The notes under the pieces were generated by a model. The model saw only the letters and a list, made by a program, of their open reading frames with translations, was not told where the DNA came from and made no database searches. Made by a program: the position numbers and the translations under genes. A stretch of 60,638 bases of DNA from an uncultured Planctomycetota bacterium (GTDB lineage Bacteria; Planctomycetota; CAYMFW01): NCBI GenBank assembly GCA_964389785.1, contig CAYMFW010000001.1, positions 10,806-71,443 of the forward strand, read 5' to 3'. Positions 1-60,100 of this stretch are shown here, piece by piece. Position 1 is the first letter of the stretch, and the number at the start of each line of letters is the position of its first letter.

Positions 1-213
1 GCCGGTCTCGGCGACCGGGTCGTGCTGGGTCTCGACTGCGCCTTCACGTCGGAAAGCGGTCCGTTTCAGCTTGCGATCATTCCGCCGCCGCCGTTCCTCT
101 ATATGTTCGTCGAGACCCTTCCCGCGTTCCGCGAGATGGGGCTGACGGAGGAGGAGGAAGAGCAGATGCTGGCGACGAACCCGCAGAGGATACTCCCCGT
201 GCGGAAGTCCTGA
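1..213 (+). CDS. Phosphotriesterase-related (amidohydrolase superfamily) protein, C-terminal part; 5' end lies outside the window
   Basis: Frame is open from base 1 (AGLGDRVVLGLDC...). The C-terminus LPAFREMGLTEEEEEQMLATNPQRIL matches the typical PTE-family ending. Confidence 0.7.
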   Translation, partial: AGLGDRVVLGLDCAFTSESGPFQLAIIPPPPFLYMFVETLPAFREMGLTEEEEEQMLATNPQRILPVRKS

Positions 214-235
214 CCCCGGTTTCTCATACAGCCCC

Positions 236-264
236 TTGACAGAACGCCGGAGAGAGGGGATTAT
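236..264 (+). promoter_or_regulatory. Sigma70-like promoter, probably giving a leaderless mRNA
   Basis: TTGACA (236-241), 17-bp spacer, GATTAT (259-264). ATG at 271 is only 6 nt downstream. Confidence 0.55.
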
Positions 265-270
265 AGGCCC

Positions 271-2220: not shown

Positions 2221-2236
2221 TCGCAGGGCATCCACG

Positions 2237-23236: not shown

Positions 23237-23275
23237 CCCCCCCCCCCTTGCGCAAACGCGTTTTTGAGGTATACT
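23237..23275 (+). promoter_or_regulatory. C11 homopolymer followed by a sigma70-like promoter (probably leaderless) for paralogue 3
   Basis: C x11 (23237-23247), TTGCGC (23248-23253), 16-bp spacer, TATACT (23270-23275). ATG at 23284 has no SD sequence. Confidence 0.55.
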
Positions 23276-23283
23276 TCTCTACC

Positions 23284-30700: not shown

Positions 30701-32909
30701 GCGTGACGTACAGCTTGTCTCCCCGGATGACGGGCGGCTGATTGCGCCATACGTGGCCGGTGGAGCTGAAGTTGTCGAGCACCGTCTTGTTCTGAGGATA
30801 CCGGGTGAGCCAGCGTATGGTGCCGGTGAGGGCGTCCACCGCGGCCACGATGCCGGCGTTCGTGCTGTGGTAGACCACCCCCTCGTGGACGAGAGGCATC
30901 GAGGAAAGGATACGGATCTTCCTCGGGTAGCGGCTCTGGGTGATCTTCAGCGGCGAGATCCGCGAGAGCCGGGTCCGCCACATCAGCTTGCCGGTCCGGG
31001 TCTCGAACGCGGCGAGCTCCGCGCCGGACGATATGTGCGACCGCCCGCGGATGTCGTCGTAGACCACCGGCGCGATCACCGAGCCGCGACCCGGGGCCGG
31101 AGACGCCTGGTACCGGTCGAGCCATTCCTCCTCGGTCAGCGCCGCCATCGGCCCCTTGGCCCACAGGAGTCGACCGGTGTACTGGTCGACCGCGACGAGC
31201 GACGGCCCGTACACGAACATGTGGGCGAAGACGACCCCGTCGTGGATCAGGATCGACTGTTCCGGGTAGTAGTCCGTCACCCCGCCGCGGCCGCCGTAGA
31301 AGTCCCAGTCGGCGCTCGCGCCGCCGGGCCCGAACACCCAGTTGAGCTCGCCCGTGAGAAGCGAGCGGCTGTAGAGGACGTTCATGTCTTTGTAGATGAT
31401 GTCCGTCTCCGTCACCCAGGGCAGGGGCTCCGGCTCCCGCCACCCGTCCCTGCCGGTGAGGTCGGCGTGCCACTCGCCGCGAACCGTCGAGAACTCGTAC
31501 GGCAGGGGGTCCGACAGCTTCTTGTCGTCGAGCGCGTCGTACCGGGCGCTGCGGCGGTTCTCCCGCTGCCTGACCCAGAACTCGTCGAACTTGAATTCGT
31601 CGAGCTGCTTCAGCAGCTCGGCGACGGTCTTCTCCCCCCTGTTCCTGATCTTCCCGACGGCCGCCCGGTAGTCGCCGTCCCGGCCCAGATGGCGGTAGCA
31701 TATGGCGAGCCTCACCCATACCTGGTCGCGGTCCAGCGCGATGTCGTCGCGGTCCTCGTCCGCGGCCCCGTGATACGTCACGATGCGCTCGTAGCAGCGC
31801 CTCGCCTCGTCGTAGCGTCCCTTGTCGACCGCGTCGTTTCCGAGCGCGAACAGGGCGTCGTCCCCGTACGAAGTGGCTAGGTGGAACCTCACCAGGTCCT
31901 TGTAGTCGAATATGGAGTAGCGCTTGACGGCGCGCTGGAAGATTTCCTTCGCGGCCGGATCGTAGAGGATCCGGTAGTAGGCCAGTTCCTTCCTGGGATA
32001 CCGAAGGATCTTTCTCTGCACATAGAGCGACGCGGGCACGAAAACGCCCTCTCCGGCGATGCAGACCAGATCGTCCTGGTAATCCTTGAGGACACGGCGG
32101 TACAGCTCCGTGGCCTGCCGGTGCTCGTTCTTCGCCTCGACGGTCTGGTTCGCCTTCGTAATGATGGGCCACACCTGAGCGTCGATCCGGACGTCGCCGA
32201 TGTTCATGAAGTTGTCCTGTCGCGAGAACGGAACCTTCTTCCGGCCGGACCTCTGGAGGCTTGCCCGGGTGTGGCTGCTGAAGACCGGATCGTAGCCGGC
32301 GTACAGCTCTTCGAGTGTCGGCCGCTTGTCCCACGCGTAGTCTCCGGCGACCTTGCCGGCTCCGGCCTTGCCTGCGGCGACGCCGGAGGCGCCGGCGAGA
32401 CGGAAGCTCGCACCCCATCCCCCTCCCCCCTGCGTGATCTTGAGGAGAATGATGTTGTCGCCCTTCTTCAGGGTGACGCTCACCTTGTCTTCACCCGGCG
32501 TGACGCCGCGCAGTGTATTGTTGGAATGGACCAGCTTCCCGTTCAGCCACACCTTGACGCCGTCGTCACTCCCGATCTCGAGCGTCGCCTTCTGCTGCGT
32601 CGCGGATTTCAGGCCGGTGCGGAGATACGCAACCCGGTTTTCCCCGCCGACCGCCTGGGTGAGATCGATCTGCCAGACCTGTGAGGGATCGGAGCTTCCC
32701 GCGTCTTTCCATTGCCCCTTGCCGTCCTCAGGGGGAAACTTGATGTCGAAGAGCTCCTGCGGTCCCTTGCCGTCCTGCGTGTACGGACCGGAAACCGACC
32801 AGCGGACCGCGTCCGCGGCCCGGACCGGAAGCGCCGGCAGAAGGACCGCTGCGGCGCACAGGCAGAAATACGTGATCGTTCTCGACGACGACGATACCAT
32901 ACGGTTCAT
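27708..32909 (-). CDS. Large secreted PQQ-like beta-propeller repeat / TPR protein with N-terminal PA14/galactose-binding-like domain
   Basis: Signal peptide, GSDDGVKVWLNGK domain, TPR-like helices, and many DxxTGxxxW propeller blades. RBS GAAAGGAG upstream of ATG 32909. Confidence 0.8.
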   Translation of the reverse strand: MNRMVSSSSRTITYFCLCAAAVLLPALPVRAADAVRWSVSGPYTQDGKGPQELFDIKFPPEDGKGQWKDAGSSDPSQVWQIDLTQAVGGENRVAYLRTGLKSATQQKATLEIGSDDGVKVWLNGKLVHSNNTLRGVTPGEDKVSVTLKKGDNIILLKITQGGGGWGASFRLAGASGVAAGKAGAGKVAGDYAWDKRPTLEELYAGYDPVFSSHTRASLQRSGRKKVPFSRQDNFMNIGDVRIDAQVWPIITKANQTVEAKNEHRQATELYRRVLKDYQDDLVCIAGEGVFVPASLYVQRKILRYPRKELAYYRILYDPAAKEIFQRAVKRYSIFDYKDLVRFHLATSYGDDALFALGNDAVDKGRYDEARRCYERIVTYHGAADEDRDDIALDRDQVWVRLAICYRHLGRDGDYRAAVGKIRNRGEKTVAELLKQLDEFKFDEFWVRQRENRRSARYDALDDKKLSDPLPYEFSTVRGEWHADLTGRDGWREPEPLPWVTETDIIYKDMNVLYSRSLLTGELNWVFGPGGASADWDFYGGRGGVTDYYPEQSILIHDGVVFAHMFVYGPSLVAVDQYTGRLLWAKGPMAALTEEEWLDRYQASPAPGRGSVIAPVVYDDIRGRSHISSGAELAAFETRTGKLMWRTRLSRISPLKITQSRYPRKIRILSSMPLVHEGVVYHSTNAGIVAAVDALTGTIRWLTRYPQNKTVLDNFSSTGHVWRNQPPVIRGDKLYVTPVDCGHLLCIDKETGRIVWVATQGQDSRWPGRDGGFHHAWRMVGFTAEGLLCLAGNDVTLLDPGTGRKVWAAGLQGYIGGGGRTDNFRADPKRVPKGLTSGINGDGDDFWWPLGHVHTHPILTKDNQINFTMQHWRGVFPPPRSGPFNSEYRLDLKSREIVSQRRWYDPGVWIQNSQFVPSINKRVVNEEPEMFYSAARMTVTRWGIPFEINVAFNRMIVRYDREKLNRVLGERKDLDSLFAKAEEARKRGDVQGAINMYEESKPLLPSEEEDRRRNINLRLYPLYAELARWGHQSADLDLLEGACRKMGATASNPTQEIKALMAYAELHEKRGDWVKAARVLQNASRHYWREPLAVSGLELGDRKKLVERTGEGIGHLVKQVPPLYAKVVEQFAEWERAALDDYFLAVADVGTEYVVETRSVMARRLRELLSRAPREFRGEYEKLAAEELKRYDDVEVGERLLWCWPESEAAKQRIKELVRETASLKPIERQAQVWRFTDLAGTCGLGEKLIQGGKTGLVPAPPPRSMASGAGMSEAGGKNEDPDMVRLTLPQKGNVEDTAHLLFINKQKKRAYGNRFTILCWNMKENRKEWESREILLHGKVVGGEGFEVGFEEVFIHEGLAIVHGQYDVVALDWRAGRELDQKGKKEKKWHFRVPLGFEIQTADLFGDVLTLCGRGSTVAISPKTGEIVWDSSEMGEFYAGPFFHENVMLTVRKSPAEVSFRKVGSGRLLCRLSLPGLTKNRKHPMYALEGAEQSPAAAEAAEEVPVAFGEGYLTVTDGMTYHAVNVGKRRIEWSKSATKLDTSTDPAYRMWIDGGKLFVLKPYYAVLENAVFDVASGEMLWRRREGGKKMDQKLRQYAGQDEEGGKAATGLILSSMVFIDGIVYGVKYQMGATTISLVGMDPVTGKEVMEVKAGGYGEPEAYVESSWSKDCVVVRVQDGNKFEVWQVDVKEKKIVQKLAAEGYGRLGEYGDASMAWQGPHLALWTFENRKFTR

Positions 32910-33015
32910 TGGCAGGCTCCTTTCCCGAAATGCGCAGCTCTCTCGTTCATCGCGGGCTCTCAACGGAACTCGTGCGAGTGAAATCCTGCGTGATGTTCTG
33001 TGTGTGAACGGACGG

Positions 33016-42168: not shown

Positions 42169-45100
42169 TCACCGTGCAGAGGCTGCGCCAGAAACCGGCA
42201 GAGATGCCGTTTTGACGAAGCATCCGCCGCCGCCGCCGCTTCCGCCGCCGGCCGGAGACGAGCCGAGGACGGTGAAGCTCCAGGAGACAGATGTTGAGAA
42301 GACATTTCTGGCCTGGTCTATGACGGTCATGTCGAAGGAGCAGGTAACATCCTCGCCCGCGGAGAAGTCGGTTTCCCTGTGCAGTACGATCTCTGACGTT
42401 TCGGAATCGTATTCCACGGTGATGATGTGCCTGCCCGACGAGCTTCCCGTAACTCTCACCGAGCCGGCCAGCAGCGGCGACATCGGCTCGCTCATGACAA
42501 TCTTGATGACCGCGTCGGGCATTATGCCCGTCATTCCGTCCGGCGGCACCACGGAGCTGACTGAGGGGGCCGTGGTGTCCAGCACAATCGTCCCGGACAG
42601 GGGCTCGCCTTCACCGATGACGTTTCTCGCCTGGACCCAGACGGTCTTCTCGCCGTCCGCCGTGTCCAGCGTGTGAGAGAAGCTCGAGGCGAAGGATTGC
42701 CATGCCGCAAGCTCCAGGTCGGCCTCGCTCCCCGCTACGCGGATCTCCCATGGACTTCCGGAAACGAGCACGTTCACTATCACGTCCACCTCATTGGTGT
42801 AATCGACGGACCCCGACGTCCTGTCCATGACGGTCACGGACGCGACCACGGGCGGGGTGTCCTCCGTTGAGATCGGGAAATTCCACGTGTAGTCGGAGCC
42901 GAGCGCGTTCTCGGCCTTGTCGCGAACGGACGACTCCACGGTGCACTGGACGGTCTCTCCATACGCAAAGCTCCCGGCCTGGTTGAAGACAAGCATCCCG
43001 TCCTGATACGTGGGATACGTCACATGCGAGCCGCTCACCAATCCCTCAACGAGCACCGTTGCATTGGTGAAATCCGATTCCAGCATATCGTCGTCGAATT
43101 CGACGACGATCACCGCGTCGACGCTCTGAGCGAAAGCTCCGTCCGACGGGATAACGCTGACCACCACGGGAGCTATGCTGTCGATGATTATCGTGTCGGT
43201 CGCGGAGCTGCCGGTTCCGTAATCGTTCTTGAGCTCACACCACAGGCGCTGCTCACCCTCATCCATGCCCAACATCTGTTCCGACGTCTGAGCATAGTCC
43301 CGCCAGGGAGCGGACAACAGCATGGCTTCGGTCCGCGCGAATCTCATATGGGTCGGGCCGCCCGCGGCGACGAGAGCCGCGACAACCGTGCGCTCGTTGC
43401 TGTAGGCGGTATCCCCGGAGCTCCTGTCTCTCAGGGTCATGCTCTGAATGACCGGGGGGCCGGGCTCGGAAGTTATCGAAAACTGCCAGGAGTATGCCGT
43501 CCCGAGCGTGTTGCCGGCCAGGTCACCCACCGCAGCCGCCGCGGTTGCGGTTACGGTTTCACCATACGAGAACTGGGCCGTTGCGCCGAACGCCACGGTT
43601 CTGGTCCCGGCATCGTACGAAGGATTTGTCGCGATGGCGCCGCTGATGCTGCCCGTTATGGTGCACGTGGCGGCGGTGAAATCGGCAGCCGCCATGTCCT
43701 CGATGAATTCGACACATACTCCCGCGTCGATCGGCTGGTCCGTGGCATTATTCGCGGGCAGGACGCTCAGCACGACCGGCGCGACCGTGTCCACTTCGAT
43801 GTCGTCGCTGAGCGAGGCGCTCTCCCCGCGCCCGTTTCCGAGCTGGCAGTAGAGCGTTCGTATCCCGTCGCCGGCCGACAGCGTCTGCTCGGACGTCTGG
43901 GCGTACGTCTGCCAGGGCGCGACGGCGAGGGCGGCGTCCGTCTCGGCGAATCGCATCTCCCTGGGGTCGTTTGCCGCGGTGAGCTCGACCTTTACCGCGA
44001 GCTCGTTGGAGTATTCGACGCTGTCGCTGTCCCTGTCCCTGAGAACGATCGCCTGCAGCGTCGGCGGGTTGGGCGGCGCGGTGGTGTCGAACGACCACGA
44101 GTAATCGGCGCCCATCGGGTTCCCCGCCTTGTCGCACACCGTACCGCCTATCGTTACCGTAACGGTTTCCTCTTCGACAAGAACGCTTCCGAGGGAAAGC
44201 GTCACTGTCTTCGTCCCCGCATCGTAGGAGGGCGTGCATGTGTATGCCCCGCCCAGCGTGCCGCTGACGGTGCACGTCGCCGCATCGAAGTCCGCGGATA
44301 TCATGTCGTCGTTGAAGGTCGCCGTTATCGTCACGTCGACCGCCTGGTCAACGGCCGCGTTCTGAGGAGCGGTGATCGTAACCGAGGGCGCCGTCATGTC
44401 GCACACGATCGTGTCGCTGGCCGTGTTGCTCGAGCCGGCGGCGTTCTTCAACTCGCACCAGAGCGTCTTCATGCCTTCTCCCGCGGAGAGAGCCTGCTCG
44501 CTGCTCGCCTGGTACGCCTGCCATGCCGCCGCAGCCAGACCCCCTTCCGTATCCGCGAAGCGCATCTCCGTGGCCGCCGGGCCGGAGGCGGAGATCTCGA
44601 TCGTGACGGTCAGCTCGTTGGTGTAGTCCTCCGAGCCGCTCGTGCGGTCCTTAAGGAGTATCGAGTCGAGAACCGGAGCAAGGCTCGGCTCCGTCACGGT
44701 TATCTGGACGGTATCGGTATCGGTCAGCGTGCCGTCGGACACGGTGAGCGTGGCCGTGTAGATGCCAGCAACCGTGTATTCGTGCGACGGGTTCTGTTCG
44801 TCCAGCGAATTGCCGTCGCCGAAATCCCACGAATAGGAGAGGTCATCGAGGTCGACATCGGTACCCGTTCCGGTAAATTGTACCGTCAGCGGCGCGTCAC
44901 CGCTGAGAGGGTTGGCGGCGGCGGTGGCCACCGGTGCGTCGTTCACGGGGTTCACGGTGATCGTGACCGTCGCCAGATTGGACGGCGTCTTGCTGTCGGT
45001 TGCCCTGTACGTGAACGTATCCTCACCGTGGTAGTTGAGCGTCGGGGTGTACGTAAAGGACCCGTCGTCCGCCAGATCGACGGTGCCGTGCTGCGGATCG

Positions 45101-48100
45101 TCCACCTTCACCGCTTTCAGCGTGTCGCCGGGGTCCGCGTCGCTGTCGTTCGAGAGGACGCCGGGCGCGGCGACGTTGAGGGCGTTATCCTCGTCCACCT
45201 CGTACGAGTCGTTCTGCGCCACGGGGGCGACGTTCGATATCTCGTGGGTGACGGCGATTGTACCGCCGGAGAGCGCCGCGAAGCCGGACGCGTTGGCCGT
45301 CGATACGGCCGTCGACAGCACGATGCCGGTCGCGTCGACCGTGGCGTCCGTTCCGTTCAACGTGACCGTCACGGCGTCGGCACCCGCCACCGCCGCCACG
45401 TCCGCCTCCAGCATGAAGTTAACGCCGTCGGCGCCGTTGTTCACCAGGAACGAGAACCCGGCGAAATCCACCGTGATGGTCCCCGTGCCGCCGGAGAGGT
45501 CCGATATCGTAACGTTGCTCGAGACCACCTCGACGTCGCCCCCATCCACGGCGCCGTCGTTGTTCACGTCCCTGAACACCTGCACGTTCGTGATCTCGGT
45601 ATTCGCGATGCCGTTCACGCCGCTCAGCTCGAACTCGAGTCTGGTCACGGTCACGATCTCGAAGGCCGGAGAGTCGGTGTTCCCCGACGTGGTCAGCCTG
45701 AATCGGTACAGGCCGGCATCCGTGTAGTCGCCGGCCGCGGTGAAAGCGTTCGTCACCTGGTTCAGCGTGTGGTCGGCCACGGCGAGGTTTCCGGGGGTGA
45801 CGGACCCGGCCTCGCCGCTGTTCGAGGAGCCCGTTCCTCCCGCCGCGCTCGTGGTGCCTCCGAACGAAGACGAGGCGTACTTGACGAGGATCCTGCCGCC
45901 CGCTCCTCCGTTCGTGCCGGCGCCGCCTTCGGCCTTCAGGTCACCGGCTCCGGCGAAGGTGTCGCAGTCTATGTAGATGCTTCCACCGGCACCGCCATCT
46001 ATCTCCGCCTCTCCGCTCGCGCTTACCATACCGTCGACCGTGATGGTGCCGGTGGAGGCGATGAGCCGCATCGCCCCTCCGCCGGCGCCCGTGCCGCCGC
46101 CGCTGCCGCACGTGCCGGGCGCGGTCGGCACGCCGTAGGCCGCGTCCGGGTTGTTTCCGCCCCGTCCGCCGTGCGTTCCGCCTTCGCCGACCTCGCCCGC
46201 TCCGGGGCCCGATCCGGCCGGGAAGCCGCGCCCGTCGGCGCTCAGCACCGCGTCCTGACCCACGGTGATATTCTCTGCGATCAGCGTCGCGCCGACGGCG
46301 CTGTCCGCATCAACGATCTCGCTCGTGAGGACCATCGTCCCGTTCCCCAGCACCACGTCTCCCGCCACGGTAAGCTCCTGGGAGTTGTCCTCCGTGAAAT
46401 TCGCGTCGAAGGTGATCGTGGACGTGTACGCCGCCTCCACCGTGATCGAATGCAGATCCTGCGGGACCTCCCCGACGGAAGCGTTACAGTCGTAGTCGTA
46501 CAGCGCGCTGAACGTGATCGCGTCACCCGCGACAGGTACGCGGAGGAGGCTCCAGTTGGCCGCGGTGGACCAGCTGTTGTCGCCGTCACCGTCATCGTTC
46601 GTCCAGATATTCTGAACGATCCGGTGCGTCGCGGTGACGCTCGTTCCCCTCAGCTCCGCGAAACCCACGGCGTTCGCGGCGTTCGCGGCATTAACCGGTA
46701 TCGCAAGCGACGTGCCCGCCGCGGTTACGGACGAGTCGGCCGCGTCCAGTGTGACGGTCAGGCCGTCGCCGTGCGCCACTCCGATCACGTCGGCCTGCAG
46801 GATGATGTCGGGGTACTTGCCGCCCGCGTTCTTCATGCGGTCGTCGTCCAGAACGAAGGCGCCCGGCGCGAAATCCACAGTGAGGGTTCCGGAGCCCCCC
46901 GACAGGTCGGACACGACCCAACCGCTGCTGGCGATCTCTCCGTCGGAGACGCCGTCACCGTCGTCCTGGAGGATGCGCACGTCGGAGATGTCCAGATTCG
47001 ACAGCCCGGACACCCCGGTGAGGTCGAACACGAGCCGGGTGATCTGGACGTCCTCGAACGCCCTGTCGTCCGTGTTGCCGTCCGTCTGGAGCCTGAACCT
47101 GAGAAGCGCGGTGTCGCCGTAGTCGGCCGGAACGGTGAACGCGTCGCCCACCTGCCCTGCGGTGTGGGCGGCAAGCTCCAGGCTGCCGGGCGCCACCGAG
47201 CCCTCCTCGCCGTCCGCCGCGCCTCCCGCGCCGCCGGACGCATCCGCGGAACCGGTGAACGTCGAGGTCCCGTACGACATGCATATCCGACCGCCGCCTC
47301 CCCCGTTGGCCGCGGCGCCGGCCCCGCCACCCCTGGCCTGCATGCTGCCGCTTCCCGCCAGCGTCGCGCAGGTGATGTACACGCTGCCGCCGGAGCCGGT
47401 GTCGTTGGCCGAGCTCGGGTCCGTCTCCTCGGCGTTCCAGGCGCCGTGCCCCGGCTCCGGCGACACGAACTTCCGCACTCGAACATCGTCCGCCCCGCCC
47501 GTACCCGAGTTGTGGTGATTCAGAGCCAGATACCCGCTCGTGTACGTGCTGTCGGCGAGACGGGTATCTCCCAAAGCGCCACCCGCGTACCATTTGTGGT
47601 CGGCGTTCTGGTCCCTCGTTATCAGGCAGGAGATCCAGGTGTTCGTGGAGCCGAACACGTCGGTCTGGGAGCCGGTGAACGCACCATCGCGGAGAATCCC
47701 CTCCTTTTCCCCTCCCCGCACGTCGAGGCGGGCGTGGTACCGTTCATTCGTCGCAGGCGTGGAGTCCTGGTAGTACTGGATCGCGGTGATGAGGGCCGTC
47801 GCGTAGAGGTCCGCTTCGATGGCCATCGGTCCGTCGTACTGGAACGTCGCCGTGCGGATGTTGGTCGTGGAGGAACTCAGATAGATGGCCTGCCTTCCCC
47901 CGACGGTCCCGTAGCTCGCTCCTCCCTGAACGGTGGTCCAGTTGTCGGCGTACGTGCCGGAGGCGTCGTCGAAGAAGAGGAACGTGTTCTCACCGCTGCT
48001 CGTCGTGGAAGCATCGGCCTTGCCGTAGTAGACGTGGATGTCCTGATCGGAACCCAGGTCCGCCGACACCTCGACCCAGAACACGGCGTGGTCGCTGTCC

Positions 48101-51100
48101 ACCATCTCCGCCATCCAGTAGTCAAGCTCCGCCGCTCCCCCGGCGTCCGTGAAGCGGATGTCCTCGAAGTCCGTTCGGCACTTGTCGTCGAGATACACGT
48201 CGCCGCCGGCGTCCGCGGCGGTTCCGTAGTGCACGGTGAGCGTCACCTGGTAGTTCGTTCCCGCTTCCGCCGCGCCGGTAACGGTGTGTCCCTTCCGGAA
48301 GCCGAAACCGGAAAGCCACGTCAGGCTCGACGGCGCCCCGTCGGCCCGGATCGTTCCGTCCACGGTGAGCGTGTCGGACGCGTTGAGCTTTACCGCGCCG
48401 CCGCCCGCGGAATCGTCCCCGCCGCTTCCGAGCGTCACCGGCGCGACCACCGCACCGTAGAGCATGGTGTTCCCGCCTCCGCCCCTTCCTCCGTGCGCTC
48501 CGCCCTGGCCCGTTCCTCCCGCGCCCGGTCCCTGGCCCGCGGCGAAGCCGGTGCCGTCGCAGTGGACGACCGCCGCGGCGCCCACCGTGATGTCCTCCGC
48601 GTTTATCGTCACGCCCTCCTGCCCCGCCGTGTCGCCCGTGAGCACCAGCGTCCCGCCGTTCAGGGTAACGTCGCGCTTCACCGTGAGGGTCTGCGACGGG
48701 CCCGCCGCGAAGTTCGCCTGGAACGTGATGGTGCCGGTGTAGTCCGAAGTGACCGTGAGGGAGGTCAGGTCCTGCGCCACGGTGCCCGCGGCGGCCGTGC
48801 AGTCCACCGACGACGTGACGTCGAACACCACCTCCTCACCGGCAACCGGCGCGTGGCCCGCGCTCCAGTTGCCGTCGACGCTCCAGTTGGTGTCTCCGAC
48901 GCTCTGCCATGTGTTCGTCACGGAGGCCATCTGGTGGGTCACTCCGGTGGTGGAGCCCGCGAGCTCGGCGAATCCGATTCCGGCCGCCGCGTTGGCGGTG
49001 GTCGCCGTCGTGCCGATCACCGCCCCGGCAGTTATCACCTTCGTATCCGTCGCCGCCAGATCGATCGTGAGCTCGTCACCCGCTTCGACGGAGGCGACGT
49101 CCGCCCGGAGTATGAAGTCCTGCCTCTGAGCGGTGCCGTCCACTACGAAGTCACCGGCCGCGAAATCGATTGTGACGGCGCCGGTATCTCCGGCGATGGA
49201 TACGTCCACCGCGCTCGAGACCATCTCCACGTCGCCCCCGTCCACGCTGCCGTCGAAGTTCGCATCGGCGTACACCTTGACGTTGGTGATGTCGACCGCG
49301 TCAACGTAATAGACGTCCGAGAGATCGAATATCAGCCGCGTGACCTCCATGCTCTCGAACGCCCCGCCGGAGTTCGTGTCGGTCTGCAGGCGGAACCGGT
49401 ACAGCATAAGCGGGTTGGCGCCGCCGAACGCGTTGGGGGCCTGGGTCTGCACGTGGTCGGCAAGGTCAAGGCTCCCCGGCGCGACGGAGCCCGCCTCACC
49501 GTTTCCGAGCCCCCCGGTGCCGCCCGTGGCGTCGGTTGTGCCAGTGAAGGTCGATGTGGTGCAGTCGATCGCGATGCGCCCGCCGCCGCCCGCGTTGCCG
49601 TTTGCCGCGGTGGTCCCTCCCTGAGACTCGATCCTGCCGCTGCCCGCCAGGGAGCTGCATACGAGAAGAAGGCTTCCGCCGGCGCCCGTGTCGAGATCGT
49701 CACCGGTCCCGGACCCGGAGGAGAACGTCTCCTCCGGTCCCGTCGAGACAAAGGTAAGGGGCGAGCTCTGGTTGCTGTACTCGGTCTTTACCCAGCCGGC
49801 GCTTCGGCCCGCGGACGCGACCCGGAGCTCGTCCAGCTGCCCGTCGAACCAGCTATAGAAGCTTCCTCCGCTGGTAGCCAGCTTGTGAGCGAACCGCAGA
49901 GAATCGCCGTTATTGTATATGGTGCCCGATACCGCCTGCGTTCCGGTGTCTATCAACTCTCCGTCTATGTAGAACTTGACGTACTGGCCGTCGTAGACGC
50001 CCGCGAGATGGTACCACGTGCCGGCCGATATGCTGCCCGCGTCGGCGTTCGCCCTGGTGCCGGCCGTGTACCAGCCATTGTTGGAGGTCCGGACGACGAA
50101 ATGCGCCGCGCCGTCCGGGCTGATGTTGAGGCGGTACGCGCCCTCCTTGATCATCGGGAAGCACAGATACTGCAGGAGCACATCCGGCCTTACCCAGGCC
50201 GAAACCGTCAGCTGCGCCATGCTCTCCAGCGTACCGCTGTCCGGAACGTCGGCGTAATCGTCCGCTCCGTCGAAGTCCCACGCCCAGCCGACCTTGCCGG
50301 CCACCCGGTCGTCGGAGCTCATGTCGCCGGAGACGGCGCCATTGTTATTGTTGGCGGTGGTGTCGCCGGCCGTGGGCGGAGGCGATTCCTCGAAATGCCA
50401 TACCCCGCCGAAATCGACCGCCCACACGCCGGCGGCGTCCCGCTGGTCCGACGAGCCGGCGTTCCCGTAATACATGTAGATCTCGGTGTCGGCCGACGCG
50501 GACAGGCCGGGAACCAGGACCCACGCCGCAAGCTCCCCCGTGCCGCTCACGTATTCCCGGATCTCGTGGCTCAGCTTCGTGGTGCCGTCCGAGCTCGTGA
50601 AGAGAATATCGTCGCCGTCCGCCTGGGCGTCGGCGGCCAGGCCCGCGTCGGAAGCCAGGTGTACCAGAGCCGGGAAGTTGGTGAGATCGTCGTCCACCTT
50701 CGCGCTGTCGATGACTATCTTCTTTCGACAGGTCCAGTCCGAATCGTACCACCAGTCGACCCCGCTGCCGCCGTTCGATCGCACCATTCCGTCCACCGTT
50801 ATCGCCCCCGTCGCGTTGAGCTTGATCGCGCCGCCGCCCGCGGTGTCCGCGCCTCCGCTGCCCAGGGTGACCGGAACGGTTCCGCTCCCGTAGGTCGCGT
50901 CGGCGTTGTTGGCGCCCTCGCCTCCGTGCGCGCCGCCTTCACCGACCGCGCCCGCGCCGGGTCCCTTCGTCGCGGAGAAGCCCCTGCCGTCGGCGTGGAG
51001 TATCGCATTCGATCCGACGACAAAGTTCGCGGCGTTGATCGTCGCGCCTTCTCCCGTGGTATCGTCTATCTCGCGGCTGCTCAGTATCAGCGTCCCGTCG

Positions 51101-54100
51101 TTCAGCGTGACGCCGCCGGTTACCGCCAGGGTCTGGGAGGGACCCTCCGCGAAGTTGGAGCCGAACGTGATCGTCCCGCCGTAGCCGGAGGCTATCGTGA
51201 GGGACGCCAAGTTCTGCGGAACGGCCCCGGCCCCCGCCGTGCAGTTCCCCGTGGAGGTCGAATCGAAGGTCACGTCGTCGCCCGCCTGCGGCACCCGCCC
51301 GATGTTCCAGTTGCCCGGGTCGCTCCAGTCCCCGTTGCCCGAGCCGTTCGTCCAGACGAGCGGTCCTCCGGTCTCCACCACGTGAGTGACGCCCTCGACC
51401 GTACCGCTGAGCTCCGCGAAGCCGGAGGAGTTGGACGCGCTCGCGATCTTGCCGAGCGAGCCGCCCGTTCCGGTGATCCTGGAGTCCAGCGAGTTCAGGC
51501 CGATTGCCAGCCGGTCGCCCGTCGCCACGGAAGCGACGTCGGCCATCAGGAAGAAGTCGTCCGAGCCGGCCGTGTCGTCCAGGAGCAGATCGCCGGGATC
51601 GAATTCGTAGGTTATGTTTCCCGTGTCGCCGTCGATCGAGACGGTGGGGAAGCCGCCCTTGGGGATCACCAGCAGGTCGCCGCCGGTGACCGTCCCGCTC
51701 CCGTCCTTGTCCCGGTACAGCTTCAGGTCCGTTATCTCGCCCGCCGCGACCCCTGACACCGCGCCCAGGTCGAACACCAGCTTCGTGACGTCCATGCTTT
51801 CGAACGCCTCGTCGTCCGTGCTGCCGTCGGTCCGCAGTTTGAACAGATACAGTATCGTGTCGTTGTAGCCGCCCTCCGCAGCGAACGCGTCCGAGAGCTG
51901 TGTGAGCGTGTGCTCTGCGATGCGGAGGCTCCCCGGCACGACCGAGCCGGCTTCCCCGTCGCTTCCCGTGCCCGCTCCGCCGGATATGTCGGTGGAGCCG
52001 GTGAAGGAACAGGAGCTGTACGACAGCGCGATCCGGCCGCCCGCACCGCCGGACGCTCCGCCGCCGCCACCGCCGCCCTTTGCCTCCAGCAGTCCGTCCC
52101 CGGCCAGCGTGTCGCATTCGATGTAGATGCTTCCGCCGGCGCCGGAGTTGCCGTTTGTTTCGCCGTTGACGGACAGCGTGCCGCTTACCGTTACCGTTCC
52201 TGTCGGGACGGAGATGCGGACCGCTCCGCCTCCCGCCCCCTGCTGGCCGCCGCTTCCCAGCGTGACCGGCGCGGTGGCGCTTCCGTACGTCTTATCGGCG
52301 ACCACGCCGCCGCCGCGGCCGGCGTGTGATCCGCCTTCGCCCGCGGCGCCGCCGCCTGTGCCGACTCCGGCGCCGTAACCGAGCGCGTTCGAATGGAGGA
52401 TCCCTCCCGAGCCCACGGTAAAAAACGGCGTGCTGCCCGTGCCCGCGCAGGTGAACGTGACGCCTGTATCGGCGCCGGCGTCGCCGGTTACCACGAGCGT
52501 TCCTCCGTTTATCGTAACGCTTCTCTTGACGGCGAGTGCCTGGGTGCCGCCCGCGCCGTTGTAGCCGAAGTTGGCGTCGAATGTGATCGTGCCGCCGTAG
52601 GTCGACGCCACGGTTATCGAAGCCAGGTTCTGCGCCACCGTGTCGGCCGCCGCGTTACAGGCGACGGACGACGTGGCGTCGAAGACCACCGCCTCGCCCG
52701 TCTTGGGGGCCCAGCCCAGGCTCCAGTTGCCGTCCACGTTCCAGTTGGTGTCCCCGGCGCTCGACCAGACGTTCGTCCCGGCGTCCGAGTCGTGGGTGAC
52801 GGCCGTCACGGTGCCCGTCAGCGCGGCGAAACCGATGCCGTCGTTGGCGGTGGTGACCGCCTCTCCGAGCGTGGTGCCCGTCGCCGTCACCCTGGAGTCC
52901 ACCGCGTTGAGCCGTACCTTCATGCGGTCGCCCAGCACCACGCCGGTGACGTCGGTTTGCAGGATGAAGTCGGGATACGTGGTGTTCTGGGAGGTCATAC
53001 GATCGTCGTCGAGAACCAGGACGCCCGCCCCGAAATCCATCGTGAGGGTCCCCGTGCCTCCCGAGAGGTCCGATACCGTCCAGCCGATGTTGGCGATCTC
53101 CGCGTCGACGACGCCGTCGCCGTCGTCCTGATAGAGATGAACGTCCGCGAACTGGGTGTCGATGATACCGTCCACCTCGGTCAGGTCGAATACGAGCTGA
53201 GAGATCTCGATCTCCTCGAAGGCGCCGTCGTCCGTGTTGGTGCCGGACTGCAGCTTGAACCGGTATACCTGGATGTCATCGTGGTCGCCGGCTCCCGCGA
53301 ATGCGTTGCCGGCCTGCGCGGCGGTGTGCTCGTCCAGCGACAGGCTGCCCGGCAGTACGGAGCCGACCTCGTTGCCCGCCGCGCCGGTCGTACCGGTGAA
53401 CGTGCAGGTGATGTAATCCAGAGCTATGCGCCCGCCGCCGCCGGCCGTTCCTCCGTTGGCCTCTATCGTTCCGGAGCCGGAGAGGGCGCCGCAGACGACG
53501 TAGACGCTGCCGCCCGCGCCGCCGGCGGCGGTGCCGTAGCCGTTTGCGCTCACGGTCCCGTCGATCGTGACCGCGCCGCCCGGGACGTTTATCCGGATCG
53601 CCCCGCCGCCGTAATAGCTGCCGTTCGATCCGGCCTTGCCGCCGCTTCCCAGCGTCACCGGAGCGGTCACGTCGCCGTAGGCCGCCACGGCACCCGCGCC
53701 CCGCCCGCCATGGGAGGCGCCCGAGGTGCTGGCTCCATCCCCCGCGCCGGTCGCGTATCCGGAGGCATACGCCGATATCTCGCCGTCCGATTCCACGGTC
53801 ACGCTTGTCGCCGTGAGCTCGCACCCGGTGCCGCTCGCGGACTCGCCGTGGAAGAAAAGCACTCCCTCCGACTGCACGGTGACGTCACCGAGTGTGTGGC
53901 TGCCGGGCGCCAGCCCCACCTTGCGGTCCGCCCGAACCGTGAGATCCGCTCCGTCGGGCAGACTCAGCGTTCCGGGCTGCCCCTCCCAGACGTCGCCGTA
54001 CCTGCCTCCGCGCACGTCGAAGTCGCCGGTGTACGTCGTACCGACGCTCCACGCTACCGCGACGCGTCCGCCCGAAGGCTGGCCGTAGCCGGGTCCGTCC

Positions 54101-57100
54101 GTGTCGCCGCCGTTGGCCTGCACCAGGCCGGCGCCCGCGAAGTTCCCGCAGGTTATCCATACGCTGCCGCCGGTTCCTCCTATATAATAGTAATGGTGAT
54201 CGCCGTTGGATCGGACGATCCCGTCCACCGTCACCGTTCCGGCGCCGACGTCGATCTTGACGGCGCCCCCGCCCCACTGGTATCCGCCCTCGGTGTTGTA
54301 GCTGCCGGCGCGTCCGCCGCTTCCCAGCGTGACGGGCGCATCCGGGTCGCCGTAGGGCACCATGCTCACGTAGTTATGCGTGCCGCCGTTTCCGTACATC
54401 CCGTACCCGCCGTGGGACGGCCCGGTGCTGTTGTCGGTATGCGAGCCCGGGCCGCTTTCCGCCATGAAGCCGTCGCTGTCGGCGTAGAGCAGGCCTCCCG
54501 ACTCGACCATGAGATTCGACGCGGTGATACGACATCCCACGATCACACGGCGCGTTCCGGAACCGACGTCCGCGAGATCAACCGGATTGGCGCCCGTCGA
54601 TGCGTCCGTCGCGTTGGTGTGTATGGTGTAGACGTTGTCAGAAAGCTTGTAGACGTAGTAGTCCGTGTCGGCAACGAGAGGATCGGGCAGGTCGGTACCG
54701 GTGAAGTAGACCGGGTCCCCGGTTTCCAGGATGCCGCAGACTGAAAGTGCTATCGATTCCGTGTCCGTATCGACATCGGTATCTCCGAACCCGTCGTAGC
54801 CGCTGTGGCAGAAGAGCGTTCCGCCGGACTGCACCGTCACGTCTCCGAACGTGTATCCGCCGGCCGCGAGGCTCACCACGTCGCCGTTCTTCACGATGAG
54901 GTCTATATCGGACGGCAGGTACACGCTTCCCGGCCGGCCGTCGTAGGAGTCGCAGTTGATGGAGTCTCCGCCCGCCACGCTGCACTTTCCGGCGAAGGTG
55001 AACGTGGTGCATTCCGCGGCGATTCGCCCGCCGCCTCCGGCACCGCACGTGCCGTCTCCGCCGTTCGCCTGCAGCGTTCCGGTGCCGGTGACCGTATCGG
55101 CTATGAGATATATGCTTCCGCCGGACGTGCCGGCGTCGCTCGACCAGGACCCGATATCGGACAACCCGTCGGAGATGATGGTGCCGTCCACCGTTATCGT
55201 TCCCGCCCCAACGTTGATCTTTACGGTACCGCCGCCTCCGTAGGCCGGGTTGTCGCCTCCGCTTCCGGGCGTCTCGGGCGACTTCTTGCTGCCGTAGCCG
55301 ACCTTGTTGTTCGCACCGCCGCGGCCGCCGTGCGCGCCGCCTCCGTAGTACGTTCCCCTGGCGCCCGGGCCCGAGTGGTACGGATAGCCACGGTAGCGCG
55401 CGTCCACCATGGCGCCCGCATCCACCGTGAAGCTCGCGGCGTTTATCGTGATGGGGTCGGCGGGCACCGGCTTGCCCGCGTAGGAGATGGTGCCGAGAGC
55501 CAGCGTGCCGCCCTGTATCGCGACGGTACCTGTAACCGTGAGCTCCTGCAGGGAGCCCTCCGCGAAGTAGTCCGCGAACGCCACCGTGCTCGTGTAGCCG
55601 GCCTGCATCGTAAGCGAAGCCAAGTTCTGGGCGACCGATCCTGCGGGGGCGTTACAATCATAGTCGTACGCCGCGCTGAAGACCACCGCGTCGCCCGCGA
55701 TGGGCACGGCGTCCAGGTCCCAGTTGGAGGGCGTCGACCAGTTCCCATCCCCGGCGCTGTCGTTGTTCGTCCAGATGAAGGTTCCCGGCACGGAGTGCTG
55801 CACGCCGGTGGTGGCCCCCGAAAGCTCCGCGAAACCGACGGCGCCCACCGCGTTGGCGGTATTGACGGTCTCGGCCAGCGACTTCCCGGCCGCTACGATC
55901 TTCGCGTCGGCCGCGTTCAAGTCGAGCGTCAACCGGTCGCCCGCCGCGATGGAGCTCACGTCCATCACGAGAAGGAAGTCGTCCTGCGCGGCGGTGTCGT
56001 CGAGCAGGAGCGCGTCCGGGTCGAACTCGAACGTTATCGTGCCGTCCGTCGCGGTGATATCGACTACGGGACTTCCGCTGACCGCCACCAGCACGTCACC
56101 CCCGTTCACGGTGCCGCTTCCGTCCTTGTCTCTGTACAGCTTGATGTCCGTTATCTCGCCAGCGGATATTCCGGTAACGGAGGAGAGGTCGAACTCCAGC
56201 CCGGTGATCTCCATGTTCTCGAAGGCCTTGTCGTCCGTGTTGCCGTCGGTGCCCAGATTGAATCGGAAGAGAACGGCGTCGTCGTAGTCGCCGGCGCCCG
56301 CGAACGCGTCCGTGACCTGCGCAGCCGTGTGGTCGGTCACTCTCAGATTGCAGGGTGCCACCGAGCCGGCCTCGCCGCCGGCCGCGCCTCCCGCGCCGCC
56401 GGGGGCCGACGCGGTGCCGGTGAACGTCGAGGTTCCATAGGACATGCACACCCGCCCGCCGCCGCCACCGTTGGCCGCCGAGGCCCCGCTGCCGCCCGCG
56501 GCACGCACCGTCCCGCTGCCCGCGAGAGCGTCACAGGTCAGATAGATGCTTCCTCCGGCGCCGGAATCGTTATCGGCCGCCGGCTCCGTCTCCTCTGCCA
56601 CCCACGCTCCGTGGGCCGGCTCGGCCGCCACGTACTTGCGGATGTATATCAGCTCCCAGTCGAAATCCAACTGGAAGGTGTCGAATTCGAAGGATGCCGG
56701 GACCAGCGCGGTGGTATCGACCGTGGCGATGTCCTTTCTCGTCGACCCATCGATATCGAGCTTCAGATTGTCCGGGGTCCAATAAGTGACTATGGTGTAC
56801 TGCTGTCCGTCCGTGTTCACCGTGCCGGCTTCGGTCGACGAGTCGGTCGTCGCGGCCGCCACCACCTTGTACACCCCCTGGGCGGAGTAACCCGAGCCTT
56901 GAAAGCAGAACCTGTAGTAGTTGTCGGCGTCCTGTCTCAGATACAGGTCTTGCTGGTTATCGCTGGGGTAGTCCTTCATCTTGGTCATGACGATCGTGGC
57001 CGAGCCCGAAGACGGAAGAGCGACGCTTCTGTAAGCGGATTCCCTGTCGTTGTCGCCCGAGATGACCTCCAGCAGTTCCTCGCTCTCGTTCCAGTAGTGG

Positions 57101-60100
57101 GAATTGGCGGGTGACTTGGTATCCACCGTGGTCCAGGTATAGTCCCCGGACGTATCCGTTTCGAAATCGTCGAAGAACGAGAATGTGGCTGACCCGTCAC
57201 TCGTCGTCGCGGCGTCGCCCTTGCCGTAGCAAACGTGGATGTCCCGGTCTGACCCCAGGTCGGCCGTCACCTCTATCCAGAAGACGGCATAGTCGCTGTC
57301 TACCATCTCCTCCATCCAGTAGTCCAGCTCCGCTACTCCCCCGGCGTCCGCGAAACGGACGTCCCCGAAATCCGTCCGGCACTTCCCGTTCAGGTATACG
57401 TCCTCCCCCGCGTCCGCTCCGGCCCCGCGGTGCACGATGAGCTTCACCTGGTAGCCCGTTCCGGCCCCGTCCGCTCCCGTTACCGTGTGTCTCTTCCGAT
57501 ACAGCCAGCCAGAAAACCACCCCGGGCTCGCGGGCGCCCCGTCCGCGCGGATCGTTCCGTCCACGGTAAGCGTCCCGGATGCGTTGAGCTTTATCGCTCC
57601 GCCCCCCGCGGAGTCCTCCCCGCCGCTTCCCAGCGTTACCGGGGCCGTCGCGGCGCCGTAGAGCGCGGTGTTGGGACCTCCGCCCCGTCCGCCGTGCGCT
57701 CCGCCCTTGTCGGTCCCTCCCGCGCCCGGTCCCTGGCCCGCGGCGAACCCGGTGCCGTCGCAGTGAACGACGGCCGCCGCGCCCACCGTGATGTCTCCGG
57801 CGTTAATCGTCACGCCTTCCCCGGTCACCGCGTCTATCGCGCGGCCGGTAAGTATCAGCGTTCCTCCGTTCAGGATCACGTCGCGCTTCACCGCAAGGGT
57901 CTGCGAGGGGCCCTCCGCGAAGTTCATCTCGAACGTGATGGTGCCGGTGTAGTCGGAGGTGACCGTGAGGGAGGCCATCTCCTGCGCAACGGCGCCCGCG
58001 GCCGCGGTGCAGTCCTCCGTCGAGGTGTCGTCGAACACGACCGCCTCTCCGAGAAGCGGCGCGTGGCCCAGGCTCCAGTTGTCGGCGTTGCTCCAGTCGC
58101 CGTCGCAGGGAAAAATACCGGTGCTCAGCCAGGCGTTCGTCACGGGCGCGATCTCGTGAGTAACACCTGTCGATGAACCGGCAAGCTCGGCGAATCCGAC
58201 CGCGTTGGCTGCGTTGTCGGTGACGGCCGTCGTGCCTGTGATCTCCCCCGCGGCTATGATGTTCGTGTCTGCCGCTGCCAGATCGATCGCCAGCTTGTCG
58301 CCCGCTTCCACGGAGGCGACATCCGCCTGAAGCATGAAGTCCCGTCTCTGCACGGTGCCGTCCACCACAAAGGCGCCGCCCGCGAAATCCATTGTGATCG
58401 TGCCGGCCGCTCCCGCAATGACTACGTCCACCGTACTCGCCGTCATCTCCACATCGCCCCCGTCGACGCTGCCGTCGAAGTTCGCGTCGGCGTATACCTT
58501 GACGCTGGTGATGTCACCCGCATCCACGTAGCAGATGTCCGACAGATCGAATATCAGTCGCGTCACCTCAATGCTCTCGAACGCCCCGCCGGAGTTGGTG
58601 TCGGTTTGCAGGCGGAATCGGTACAGCATGAGCGGGTCGGCGCCTCCGAACGCATTCGGGGCCTGCGTCTGCGCATGGTCGGCCAGATCCAGATTGCCCG
58701 GCGTAACCGAACCGGCTTCGCCGGTGCCCAGACCCCCGGGGCCGCCGGAGACGTCTGTGATGCCGACAAAGGTACAGGTGGCATAGCTGGCGGCGATCCT
58801 TCCTCCCGCACCGCCCTGGCCGTTCGACATCGCCGTGCCGCCCACCGCTTCGATCAACCCGCCGCCGGCAAGCGTTCCGCAGATAAAGTAGATGCTGCCG
58901 CCGGCGCCGGTATCGTAGTCCGTGCCGCCGAATTCCGCTTCCTCGGCAGACCATCTGTCGGGGCTTGGTTCGGCCGCCAGGCATTTACGAAACGCAATCC
59001 AGTCGTACATGCAGACCGCGGGCTTATACAGACCGGCCCGCCAGGTCCAACTTCGGCCGGCAAATCCGGGCTGGGTCAATTGCTGGGAGCCAAGGAGACT
59101 GCCGGCGTCCGACCAGAATACGGCCTCGAACGTGGTCGTAGCGGTCTTTCGATTCTCGTTGATGTACCAGATGTTGCTGTCTTCGAGGACGATGGTGTCC
59201 AGGTCCTTATCCCCGCTATCCCCGCCGGGGGTGCCGTCGTTATATTGGATATGGAAACCATGGGGGTCCTTGTTATCATCGCAAATTCGGAAACATTGTT
59301 CCCCCGAGCTTGTATCATCAAGACAATTCTGAAACCACCAATTGATGCCGGTGGTTTTGTAGCGCGTGCGCGCGGCGAATTTTTCGCCGTCGGCGAAAGT
59401 CTGGATGGAGTACATCGAAGCCCACGAGCCGTCACTCCAGATGCTCAACGTGCCCCCGGAGACTGAAAAATCCATGGAGGTGCTGGCGTAAGTGAATTTG
59501 TCGTTGTTTTGAGCGGAGAAATCGTCGAAAAGGATGAACGTGTCGTCACCGTTGCTGGTCGTCGCTGCGCCGGCCTTGCCGTAATAGATGTATATGGCCT
59601 GATCGCTTCCCAGATCGTCGGCCACTTCCACCCAGAAGACGGCATCGTTGCCCTTTACGGACTCGAGCCAGTAGTCCAGCAGTGTCACCCCGTCCGCGGC
59701 GGTAAAACGGACATCGCCGAAATCCGCGAGGCATTTCGCGCGAAGATAGACGCCTTCACCGCTGTCGACGCCCGAGGAACGGTGCACGTCGAGCTTCACC
59801 TGGTAGTTCGCGCCGGCACCCGCCGATCCGGCAATGACATGCCTCTTGCGCCACGACCAGCCCGACATCCAGTTCCCCATCTGTCCGTTGCAGCTCACGG
59901 CGCCGTCGATCGTAATAGTGCCGACCGCGACGTTGATCTTCAGTGCGCCGCCGCCGGCGGTGTCAGCGCCGCCGCTTCCAAGGGTCACCGGAACCGTGGC
60001 GCTTCCATAGAGCGGGTCCGCGTTACCCCCGCCCTGGCCGCCGTGCGCCCCTGCCTCACCGGCACCTCCTCCGCCGGGCCCCCTGGTCGCCGAGAACCCC

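Follow-up and report, generated by a model that had tools for sequence, protein, structure and literature searches.

Architecture of the giant gene and its slots

The window analysed here is the whole 60,638-nucleotide stretch of DNA from the uncultured salt-marsh Planctomycetota bacterium CAYMFW01 (assembly GCA_964389785.1, contig CAYMFW010000001.1, positions 10,806 to 71,443), whose metagenome-assembled genome (G000) consists of 570 contigs and is 90% complete. Translation of the minus strand, on which all features of the gene described below lie, revealed a single open reading frame (ORF; 42169–60573) encoding a giant fibre protein of 6,134 amino acids (aa), P0001, in which four domain-sized units interrupt a repeated scaffold at the same place. 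Inspection of the translation by eye suggested an N-terminal signal-peptide-like segment (aa 1–28, 60490–60573) with a basic n-region, a hydrophobic core and the sequence CYG/AE. This segment is followed by seven paralogous modules (aa 29–5114), each consisting of a Gly-rich scaffold unit and then an immunoglobulin (Ig)-like domain, by a C-terminal stalk in which Pfam recognized cadherin-like, PKD and four Big_5 domains (42241–45231), and by a Gly-rich C-terminal tail (...GGGCFVKTA..., 42172–42240) that resembles the CFI-box putative sorting motif of NCBIfam (NF041763, E 0.045, below the cut-off).

The seven modules were aligned with MAFFT, and the motif positions were mapped separately. The results showed that modules 1 (aa 29–810, 58144–60489), 2 (aa 811–1597, 55783–58143), 5 (aa 3069–3884, 48922–51369) and 6 (aa 3885–4650, 46624–48921) carry inserts of 324, 324, 360 and 312 residues, respectively, and that both approaches place all four inserts at an identical junction, between (I/V)DGx(I/V)xxxG and (T/S)G(A/S)GGS. 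Because module 3 (aa 1598–2598, 52780–55782) contains three scaffold sub-units, the protein has nine equivalent scaffold units, and the remaining five hold 5–11 residues at this slot. These are the three sub-units of module 3, module 4 (aa 2599–3068, 51370–52779; empty slot at aa 2805–2809, 52147–52161) and module 7 (aa 4651–5114, 45232–46623), whose empty slot spans aa 4855–4860 by motif positions (45994–46011) and five residues when counted between the flanks recognized by a hidden Markov model (HMM). The original prediction, made from the letters of the window, had placed inserts of about 320–360 aa in modules 1, 2, 5 and 6 at one insertion point and only a few residues at the slots of modules 4 and 7, with no mention of the module 3 sub-units; the module alignment, which it had proposed as a check, bears this out (312–360 aa, coordinates within about 10 nucleotides, five residues in each empty slot).

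The region flanking the slot consists of three successive 24-residue segments with the common pattern G.GG.I.I...G.....GG, which in module 4 read GGGAVRISVPTGTVTVSGTLSVNG, GAGGSIYIECDTLAGDGLLEAKGG and GAGGRIALSYSSCSFTGSTDISGG; the slot joins the first of them to the second. By their sequence pattern these segments resemble β-solenoid coils, and the slot would then be a turn between successive coils. An odd stretch of about 75 residues (GILETGDPVYFTG, YYVYKLSDNVYTIHTN), unlike the remaining protein, was observed between sub-units 1 and 2 of module 3 (aa ~1938–2014, window ~54532–54762, minus strand) and may be another small inserted domain. D.N.DG.VDGGD loops similar to the calcium loops of dockerins and EF-hands were also observed in the Ig-like domain of every module (e.g. 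aa 5002–5026, window ~45496–45570), and their match to Dockerin_1 in Pfam stayed below the cut-off (E 0.0016).

Within each insert a DUF2341 domain comes first and is followed by a head of about 180 aa. DUF2341 (PF10102) was recognized in all four inserts, at 72.9, 67.9, 42.9 and 70.1 bits for inserts 1, 2, 5 and 6 (gathering score 23.4). Insert I1 (aa 231–554, 58912–59883; DUF2341 E 3e-20) comprises DUF2341 (aa 231–345), a type 1 head (aa 346 to about 530) and a C-terminal linker, while I2 (aa 1013–1336, 56566–57537; E 1.1e-18) and I6 (aa 4080–4391, 47401–48336; E 2.2e-19) combine DUF2341 with heads of type 2 and type 6, respectively. I5 (aa 3269–3628, 49690–50769) holds a divergent DUF2341 (E 6.9e-11) and, as had been predicted, a LamG domain (Laminin_G_3, PF13385, E 3.2e-22), which no other insert contains (79.7 bits, gathering score 27.6). 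Pfam returned nothing, even at E ≤ 10, for the cores of inserts 1, 2 and 6. These heads start with F.FFDDF and end with ..D[WD].{1,2}VRK....EP, after which the linker follows; the R, K, E and P of this ending are nearly invariant in 30 units, a conservation that extends across the family. The shared frame foreseen for inserts 1, 2 and 6 therefore needs one correction: DUF2341 does form their N-terminal part, but by sequence the RK....EP....W.AEE part closes the head, in a serial order of the two domains, and appears not to be a portion of a DUF2341 domain enclosing the core.

Comparison of paired modules showed that two levels of the structure vary. Modules 2 and 6 are 80% identical in the scaffold N-terminal to the slot, 71% in DUF2341, 9% in the core, 55% in the C-terminal frame and 70% in the scaffold after the slot; at the DNA level their flanks are 77–91% identical, their cores (about aa 1140–1305) 31–50%, and the sequence thereafter 66–83%, with about one quarter to one third of the codons for identical residues differing synonymously. 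Modules 1 and 5 are 66% identical in the N-terminal scaffold, 32% in DUF2341, 13% in the core, 59% after the slot and 78% in the Ig-like domain, and the I5 DUF2341 is only 23–32% identical to those of I1, I2 and I6. Thus only the head differs between modules 2 and 6, whereas the entire DUF2341–head cassette differs between modules 1 and 5. This contrast indicates two kinds of boundary, scaffold/unit and DUF2341/head, in agreement with the two-level modularity originally proposed.

DUF2341–head units and their relatives

The DUF2341 subfamily of the window was found in 40 genome contigs at 39–61% identity, in hosts that include Bathyarchaeia, Asgard archaea, Brockarchaeota, Thermoplasmatales, Patescibacteria/Saccharibacteria, Omnitrophota, Cloacimonas and Chitinophagaceae, among others; the DUF2341 domains of I1, I2 and I6 are 40–65% identical to archaeal and candidate-phyla copies. 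Two overlapping searches of a large protein collection returned 89 and 77 proteins of the subfamily, and it was also present in 328 metagenome stretches (alignment-based scan) and 55 viral contigs. A single-protein query against the metagenome contigs gave no match, and an alignment query gave DUF2341 relatives only. A strict pattern search detected the F.FFDD junction in 24 of the 40 loci, 15 of which have RK..EP some 170–190 residues downstream. A regular-expression search found RK..EP after the junction in 84 of 102 metagenome and viral units as well, a count without a chance control that was not used as evidence. The domains that follow DUF2341 vary among unannotated heads, DUF1080-like domains, LamG and propellers like those of glycoside hydrolase (GH) families 43, 130 and 32. 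Among 131 units, 786 pairs have DUF2341 domains at least 70% identical, and only 155 of these pairs (20%) have heads that BLAST could align, with a median identity of 28%; across the family, DUF2341 and its heads are thus uncoupled.

Of 12 viral loci examined, four (L168, L173, L177 and L178; ORFs of 600–1,300 aa) have the DUF2341 gene beside genes like those for major head or tail-fibre proteins, and this neighbourhood suggests a virion-associated binding role and a route of horizontal spread. In a protein atlas, clusters of DUF2341 proteins were 74–78% viral, which we note as a lead only. The literature found to mention DUF2341 contained no characterization of the domain. Passages of two papers propose DUF2341 proteins as adhesins, in archaeal pilus loci (PMC4858521) and among giant Patescibacteria proteins (PMC11809585), and a passage of a third places DUF2341 with a following LamG or concanavalin A (ConA)-like domain in MotA/TolQ-like proteins as well (PMC12505986); in the parts of the three papers that concern DUF2341, adhesin roles are proposed or the protein is listed as an unknown appendage.

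In contrast to the wide spread of DUF2341, head types 1, 2 and 6 were encountered in few genomes, all of them from the window's phylum, apart from a few further type 6 relatives. Head 1 is 36–38% identical to heads in G354:C79 and G007:C43 (G354 and G007 being two other genomes) and matched 6 of 401 genomes of the phylum, G000 included. Head 2 is 54–56% identical to G007:C61 and 39% to G007:C8, with matches in 5 of the 401 genomes, and head 6 is 30–34% identical to G354:C101, with matches in 4, and 43% identical over 115 aa to locus L080. The G007:C8 copy (locus L032) lies at the C-terminus of a 566-aa protein whose N-terminus is helical and rich in Lys and Glu and which has no DUF2341, and the head is therefore an autonomous domain.

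The cores of inserts 1, 2 and 6 had been called dissimilar, and their identities are indeed near chance and far below those of their flanks. They nevertheless are not unrelated. One head of G354:C79 matches core 1 with an E value of 5e-35 and core 2 with one of 3e-4, single-linkage clustering of BLAST matches (at least 100 aa, E < 1e-5) united 37 of 46 heads, and anchor positions are shared across a 30-row head alignment. Heads 1, 2 and 6 are therefore distant homologues of one another, and weaker matches relate them to DUF1080-like (ConA-like) domains. The G354:C101 head matches 3keto-disac_hyd (DUF1080, PF06439) with E values from 5e-5 to 9e-5, short of the gathering score; related heads in two full-length ORFs reach 23.0–23.8 bits, the gathering score being 26.8; and among 31 isolated heads, six match 3keto-disac_hyd (E ≤ 0.05, best 1e-6), three Laminin_G_3 and one CBM_4_9. 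A profile of six type 6 heads matched 150 residues of the Protein Data Bank (PDB) entry 4jqt_A, named a 'putative glycosyl hydrolase' (E 0.0058), followed by a GH16 β-glucanase (E 0.29) and neurexin LNS domains (E ~3). As the matches to 3keto-disac_hyd are sub-threshold and none comes from the window's own heads, these heads are better described as ConA-like by distant homology than as members of PF06439. The jelly-roll-like fold originally proposed for the cores is thus supported insofar as weak but consistent profile matches suggest a ConA-like domain. For the homologue P0154, the protein atlas gave weak structural leads only.

These matches also bear on what the heads do. The heads could be catalytic ConA-like domains (DUF1080/3-keto-disaccharide-hydrolase-like or GH16-like), in which case the fibre would display enzymes and not lectins. 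This would agree with the weak matches of related heads to 3keto-disac_hyd and of the type 6 profile to GH16 β-glucanase, with the GH43/GH130/GH32-like propellers that follow DUF2341 in other proteins (L062, L069 and L075), and with the glycoside hydrolase genes that adjoin the giant gene. However, every hydrolase-family match lies below the gathering score (23–24 against 26.8 bits), none is made by a head of the window, and one of the four heads is a LamG domain, a family known mainly for binding. We consider an enzymatic display unlikely.

Histories of heads, DUF2341 domains and slot

Separate trees of DUF2341 domains and heads were built from 30 units, namely three from the window (I1, I2 and I6), two each from G354 and G007, and 23 taken from the 40 genome-contig loci; of the 17 excluded loci, two were duplicate sequences, and the other 15 were incomplete, lacked a clear junction or carried heads that fell outside the main BLAST group. 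The DUF2341 tree showed I2 and I6 as sisters (support 99/98) and likewise G007C43 and G007C61 (100/98). In the head tree, I2 grouped with G007C61 (100/99) and I1 with G007C43 and G354C79 (100/99), while I6 stood on a long, unresolved branch. Hypotheses for the approximately unbiased (AU) tests on the head data were fixed before the head tree was inspected, and the tests rejected both DUF2341 groupings, I2+I6 with a p value of 0.009 and G007C43+G007C61 with one of 6e-91. By sequence, then, DUF2341 domains group by genome and heads by type across genomes. Given these incongruent groupings and the rejection of congruence by the AU tests, we conclude that heads have been exchanged by recombination at the DUF2341/head junction.

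The pairwise identities point the same way. The closest relative of the I2 DUF2341 is that of I6 (71%), and the G007 DUF2341 domains are only 29% identical to the I6 domain; since head 2 is nevertheless 54–56% identical to that of G007:C61, differences in rate alone are insufficient to explain the data. An independent case was found in G354, where C79 and C101 are 68–80% identical over scaffold and DUF2341, 10–30% over the head (type 1 against type 6) and 62–85% thereafter. The data do not separate movement of heads from homogenization of their flanks, both of which would be recombination with breakpoints at domain junctions. The exchange is old, because the flanks carry many synonymous differences. 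The swapping of heads by recombination at conserved flanks that the original prediction envisaged is hence supported as a past process by the incongruent trees, the AU tests and the G354 pair, but not as active swapping, for which the old flanks, the lack of donors and the lack of variants in four metagenome runs leave no sign.

In the simplest history of the slot itself, a unit would have been inserted once and then copied as modules duplicated. Grouping of the four filled modules in one clade was neither supported nor rejected (p-AU 0.27), which would also allow a history without any exchange, in which a single insertion was duplicated with its module and the heads merely evolved much faster than DUF2341 and scaffold. 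The family-wide divergence of heads described above (155 of 786 pairs alignable, median 28%) would agree with such a history. However, head 2 is at chance level to the I6 head that sits beside a 71% identical DUF2341 while retaining more than half identity to G007:C61, the DUF2341 groupings fail the AU tests on the head data, type 2 heads are also found where DUF2341 is absent (G007:C8), and the 23–32% identical DUF2341 of I5 lies inside flanks that are 66–78% identical. For the heads this explanation is already largely refuted, and we regard it as very unlikely.

The scaffold belongs to a large unannotated family: its profile matched 10,370 cluster representatives at E ≤ 1e-3, 3,144 of them at E ≤ 1e-30; Pfam did not cover it in the eight top homologues scanned, and against the PDB it gave chance-level matches only. 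An example of its Gly-rich unit is that of module 4 (window 51949–52779). A slot census of 149 other proteins among the best 150 of the 10,370 homologues yielded 671 paired slots, 662 with at most 15 residues and seven with 16–40, and not one held a domain-sized insert. The two slots that appeared large turned out to have mis-paired flanks. DUF2341 occurs elsewhere in five of the census proteins, never in the slot. A junction-spanning query (aa 4000–4204) in a word-index search found, among the matches listed, no other protein covering both sides in the length ranges 30–3372, 360–2000 and 3373–10735 aa; the matches P0167, P0245, P0233, L139 and L145 that had seemed to do so were spurious extensions. 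The flank motifs were present in none of the best 80 of the 328 metagenome loci. G007 and G354 do carry DUF2341–head units inside β-helix-like proteins, but in another scaffold type and at another position; accordingly, an HMM scan of the slot flanks over the proteins of G007, G354 and G050 gave no match, the scaffolds there being of a non-Gly-rich type. In genome G019, scaffold units make up ORFs as long as 11,954 and 12,929 aa, and the one slot checked there (L005) is empty. The suggestion that the slot is used recurrently is therefore not borne out among the homologues examined, none of which has a filled slot, and one ancestral insertion with module duplication is not rejected.

Silent donor cassettes drive programmed variation at pilE/pilS and vlsE, and replacement of expressed heads from such donors would be a further way to produce conserved flanks around variable cores. 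Conserved flanks would permit it in principle, and one low-depth contig of metagenome run X2 joins places in modules 6 and 2. This joint (48514 to 57716) has a depth of 2.9 and connects paralogous places that have 32 letters in common, which fits an ambiguity of the k=31 assembly graph; of nine listed joints, the other eight had sides of fewer than 30 letters and were given no weight. No donor cassettes were found in the 90% complete genome G000: DUF2341 gave four matches there, all in the giant gene, heads 1, 2 and 6 gave self matches only, and the scaffold flanks were confined to the giant gene. The flanks contain many synonymous differences and no long identical tracts. No alternative cargo, insertion or deletion, or supported joint was seen in the four metagenome runs; as contigs drop rare variants, the absence of variants is not thereby demonstrated. 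We regard programmed variation as highly improbable.

That the gene is a chimera or misordered product of assembly is hardly credible: although it comes from a 570-contig metagenome-assembled genome, has repetitive modules and shows Logan breaks at paralogous places (48517–48544 and 57718–57745), the Logan contigs of X1 cover the whole of it with 0 differences and hold each insert with both its junctions in one contig (X1 is probably the source sample and hence not independent), three junctions are spanned, again with 0 differences, by short contigs from runs X2 and X4 (parts of the gene being without cover in X2–X4), a second public contig has the identical sequence, and the module copies are at most 91% identical at the nucleotide level (90-nucleotide windows). 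In the second public contig the gene is called as two proteins of 2,174 and 3,948 aa, a call that omits 12 residues (aa 2174/2187, window ~54013–54051) through which the window and an X1 Logan contig read identically.

A proposed fibre with side units: interpretation, known systems and context

Taken together, the architecture, the equal junctions, the homologies and the incongruent histories favour, with a probability of about 60%, a secreted fibre from whose scaffold turns four two-domain units bud and whose heads were exchanged over evolution. The gene product would be a secreted, probably cell-surface fibre running from seven modules of Gly-rich coils of about 24 residues and Ig-like domains, through the cadherin/PKD/Big_5 stalk, to the C-terminal tag that resembles a CFI-box. 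Four of the modules would have the turn between successive coils of the presumed solenoid interrupted by a self-contained unit of DUF2341 and a ~180-aa ConA-like head, each budding sideways from the fibre like the ligand-binding domains of the 'split domains' of RTX adhesins. The fibre would thus present four different heads, three of DUF1080-like subtypes and one LamG, and could attach to several glycans or surfaces simultaneously, the organism having glycan-degrading genes next to this one. The DUF2341–head unit is probably an old, horizontally spread cassette that would have entered the scaffold turn a single time and been copied by module duplication, and later recombination at the scaffold/unit and DUF2341/head junctions (F.FFDDF ... 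RK....EP) would have replaced either the cassette or the head. An adhesive or binding role is suggested by the GH123-like, GH38 and GH29 neighbours, the DUF2341 literature, the viral loci and the split-domain principle.

Several results weigh against this interpretation. Heads 1, 2 and 6 of the window match no Pfam family, PF06439 included; a profile comparison of heads with LamG by hhalign was weak (probability 23%, E 9e-4); and a whole-unit profile gave no PDB match at E ≤ 1. The solenoid scaffold, a jelly roll in heads 1, 2 and 6, and neighbouring positions for the two ends of each unit are predictions from sequence. Because the family nearest to the heads is named a hydrolase, the heads may be enzymes. 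The scaffold tree supports neither a single nor a multiple origin of the filled slots. The tail scored 13.4 bits against NF041763, where the cut-off is 15.9, and no gene for a secretion partner was seen within 18 kb upstream.

RTX adhesins, in which split domains with projecting ligand-binding domains were reportedly treated by Graham et al. in 2024 (Proteins 92:933), are the closest parallel to a fibre with budding side units. In part of a paper on these proteins, ligand-binding domains are described as budding from split Ig-like or β-roll domains and pointing off the fibre axis, the split-domain host being, in one case within Aeromonas hydrophila AhLap, a β-roll solenoid (PMC12077191). The window protein would be alike, as far as that account goes, in being a giant fibre with several different, presumably binding, domains; its sequence reads as scaffold unit, insert and rest of the unit, from which a domain leaving and re-entering the scaffold is predicted. 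Unlike RTX adhesins, it has no RTX nonapeptide repeats, no RTX or HemolysinCabind family (Pfam, E ≤ 0.01) and no type I secretion signal, and ends in a CFI-box-like tag; its host, absent from both Pfam and the PDB, is Gly-rich and made of ~24-residue coils, one turn is used four times in paralogous modules, and the cargo is a DUF2341 and ConA-like unit.

Known proteins with DUF2341 and LamG or ConA-like domains share with the window the domain pair and the junction motifs (SNG.TF.FFDDF; RKY..PEP). Elsewhere, however, the units are terminal in the protein or follow one another like beads on a string (P0245 and G050 proteins), whereas those of the window lie inside a scaffold turn. In phage tail fibres, receptor-binding heads are exchanged as modules on a conserved proximal part by recombination at conserved junctions. 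The likeness to the window protein lies in a conserved part with exchangeable binding heads, and DUF2341 units occur in the 55 viral contigs; unlike in tail fibres, the window unit belongs to a cellular giant protein, and its exchange was deduced from trees. GGA[ILV] and FxxN motifs in the window protein look like those of chlamydial Pmp passengers, but no autotransporter family, with its C-terminal β-barrel, was found in it (Pfam, E ≤ 0.01).

The original prediction had presented the slot as its best candidate for an undescribed system. This is not borne out, for cassettes of DUF2341 and a variable head, joined at the same motifs, occur widely among Archaea, Bacteria and viral contigs, and split-domain budding is in print in the part of PMC12077191 concerned. 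Split-domain budding and the DUF2341–head cassette were thus already known; new is the presence of four such units in the same turn of paralogous coils. The gene is not an active or self-contained plug-in system, and its heads have been exchanged over evolutionary time; the uncoupling of DUF2341 from heads across the family and the large unannotated scaffold family are notable by-products. If the interpretation holds, the split-scaffold budding design would extend beyond RTX adhesins to a very large unannotated Gly-rich scaffold family, DUF2341 would gain a role as the conserved base on which ConA-like heads are exchanged in archaeal, bacterial and viral surface proteins, and the four heads would be small, separable domains whose ligands are directly testable. 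A bolder idea, which we put forward tentatively and think rather doubtful, is that DUF2341 is a universal 'socket' domain, conserved at 40–65% identity from Archaea and candidate-phyla bacteria to the window's phylum and tailed viruses, on which ConA-like and other heads are exchanged at F.FFDDF and RK....EP. It would then be a virus-spread, cross-domain receptor-binding cassette, and the window protein the first seen with four sockets in the turns of one solenoid fibre.

Downstream of the giant gene lie genes for GH123-like, GH38, DUF4185 and GH29 proteins, AraC regulators and prepilin-type N_methyl proteins, and no phage genes were found near it. Upstream, beyond the window, are a HEAT protein, a GGDEF response regulator and two GAF histidine kinases, the last three directly upstream at G000:C1 72743–77189 (locus L161). 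Other large adhesins are controlled via cyclic di-GMP, and by analogy these GGDEF and GAF genes may link the fibre to such control. The motif GGCF[ILV] lies within the last 30 aa in 23 of the 30 G000 ORFs that have it. The tag, a Gly run followed by GGCF[ILV]x[TS]A and 10–20 further residues, ends at least 23 G000 ORFs, mostly of 600–6,100 aa; the term 'CFI-box' was not found in the literature searched. The window also contains a second large ORF of 1,751 aa (27708–32963, minus strand) with matches to a PQQ/BamB-like propeller and tetratricopeptide repeats (TPR), two prepilin-type N_methyl proteins (21542–24450) and many glycoside hydrolase genes.

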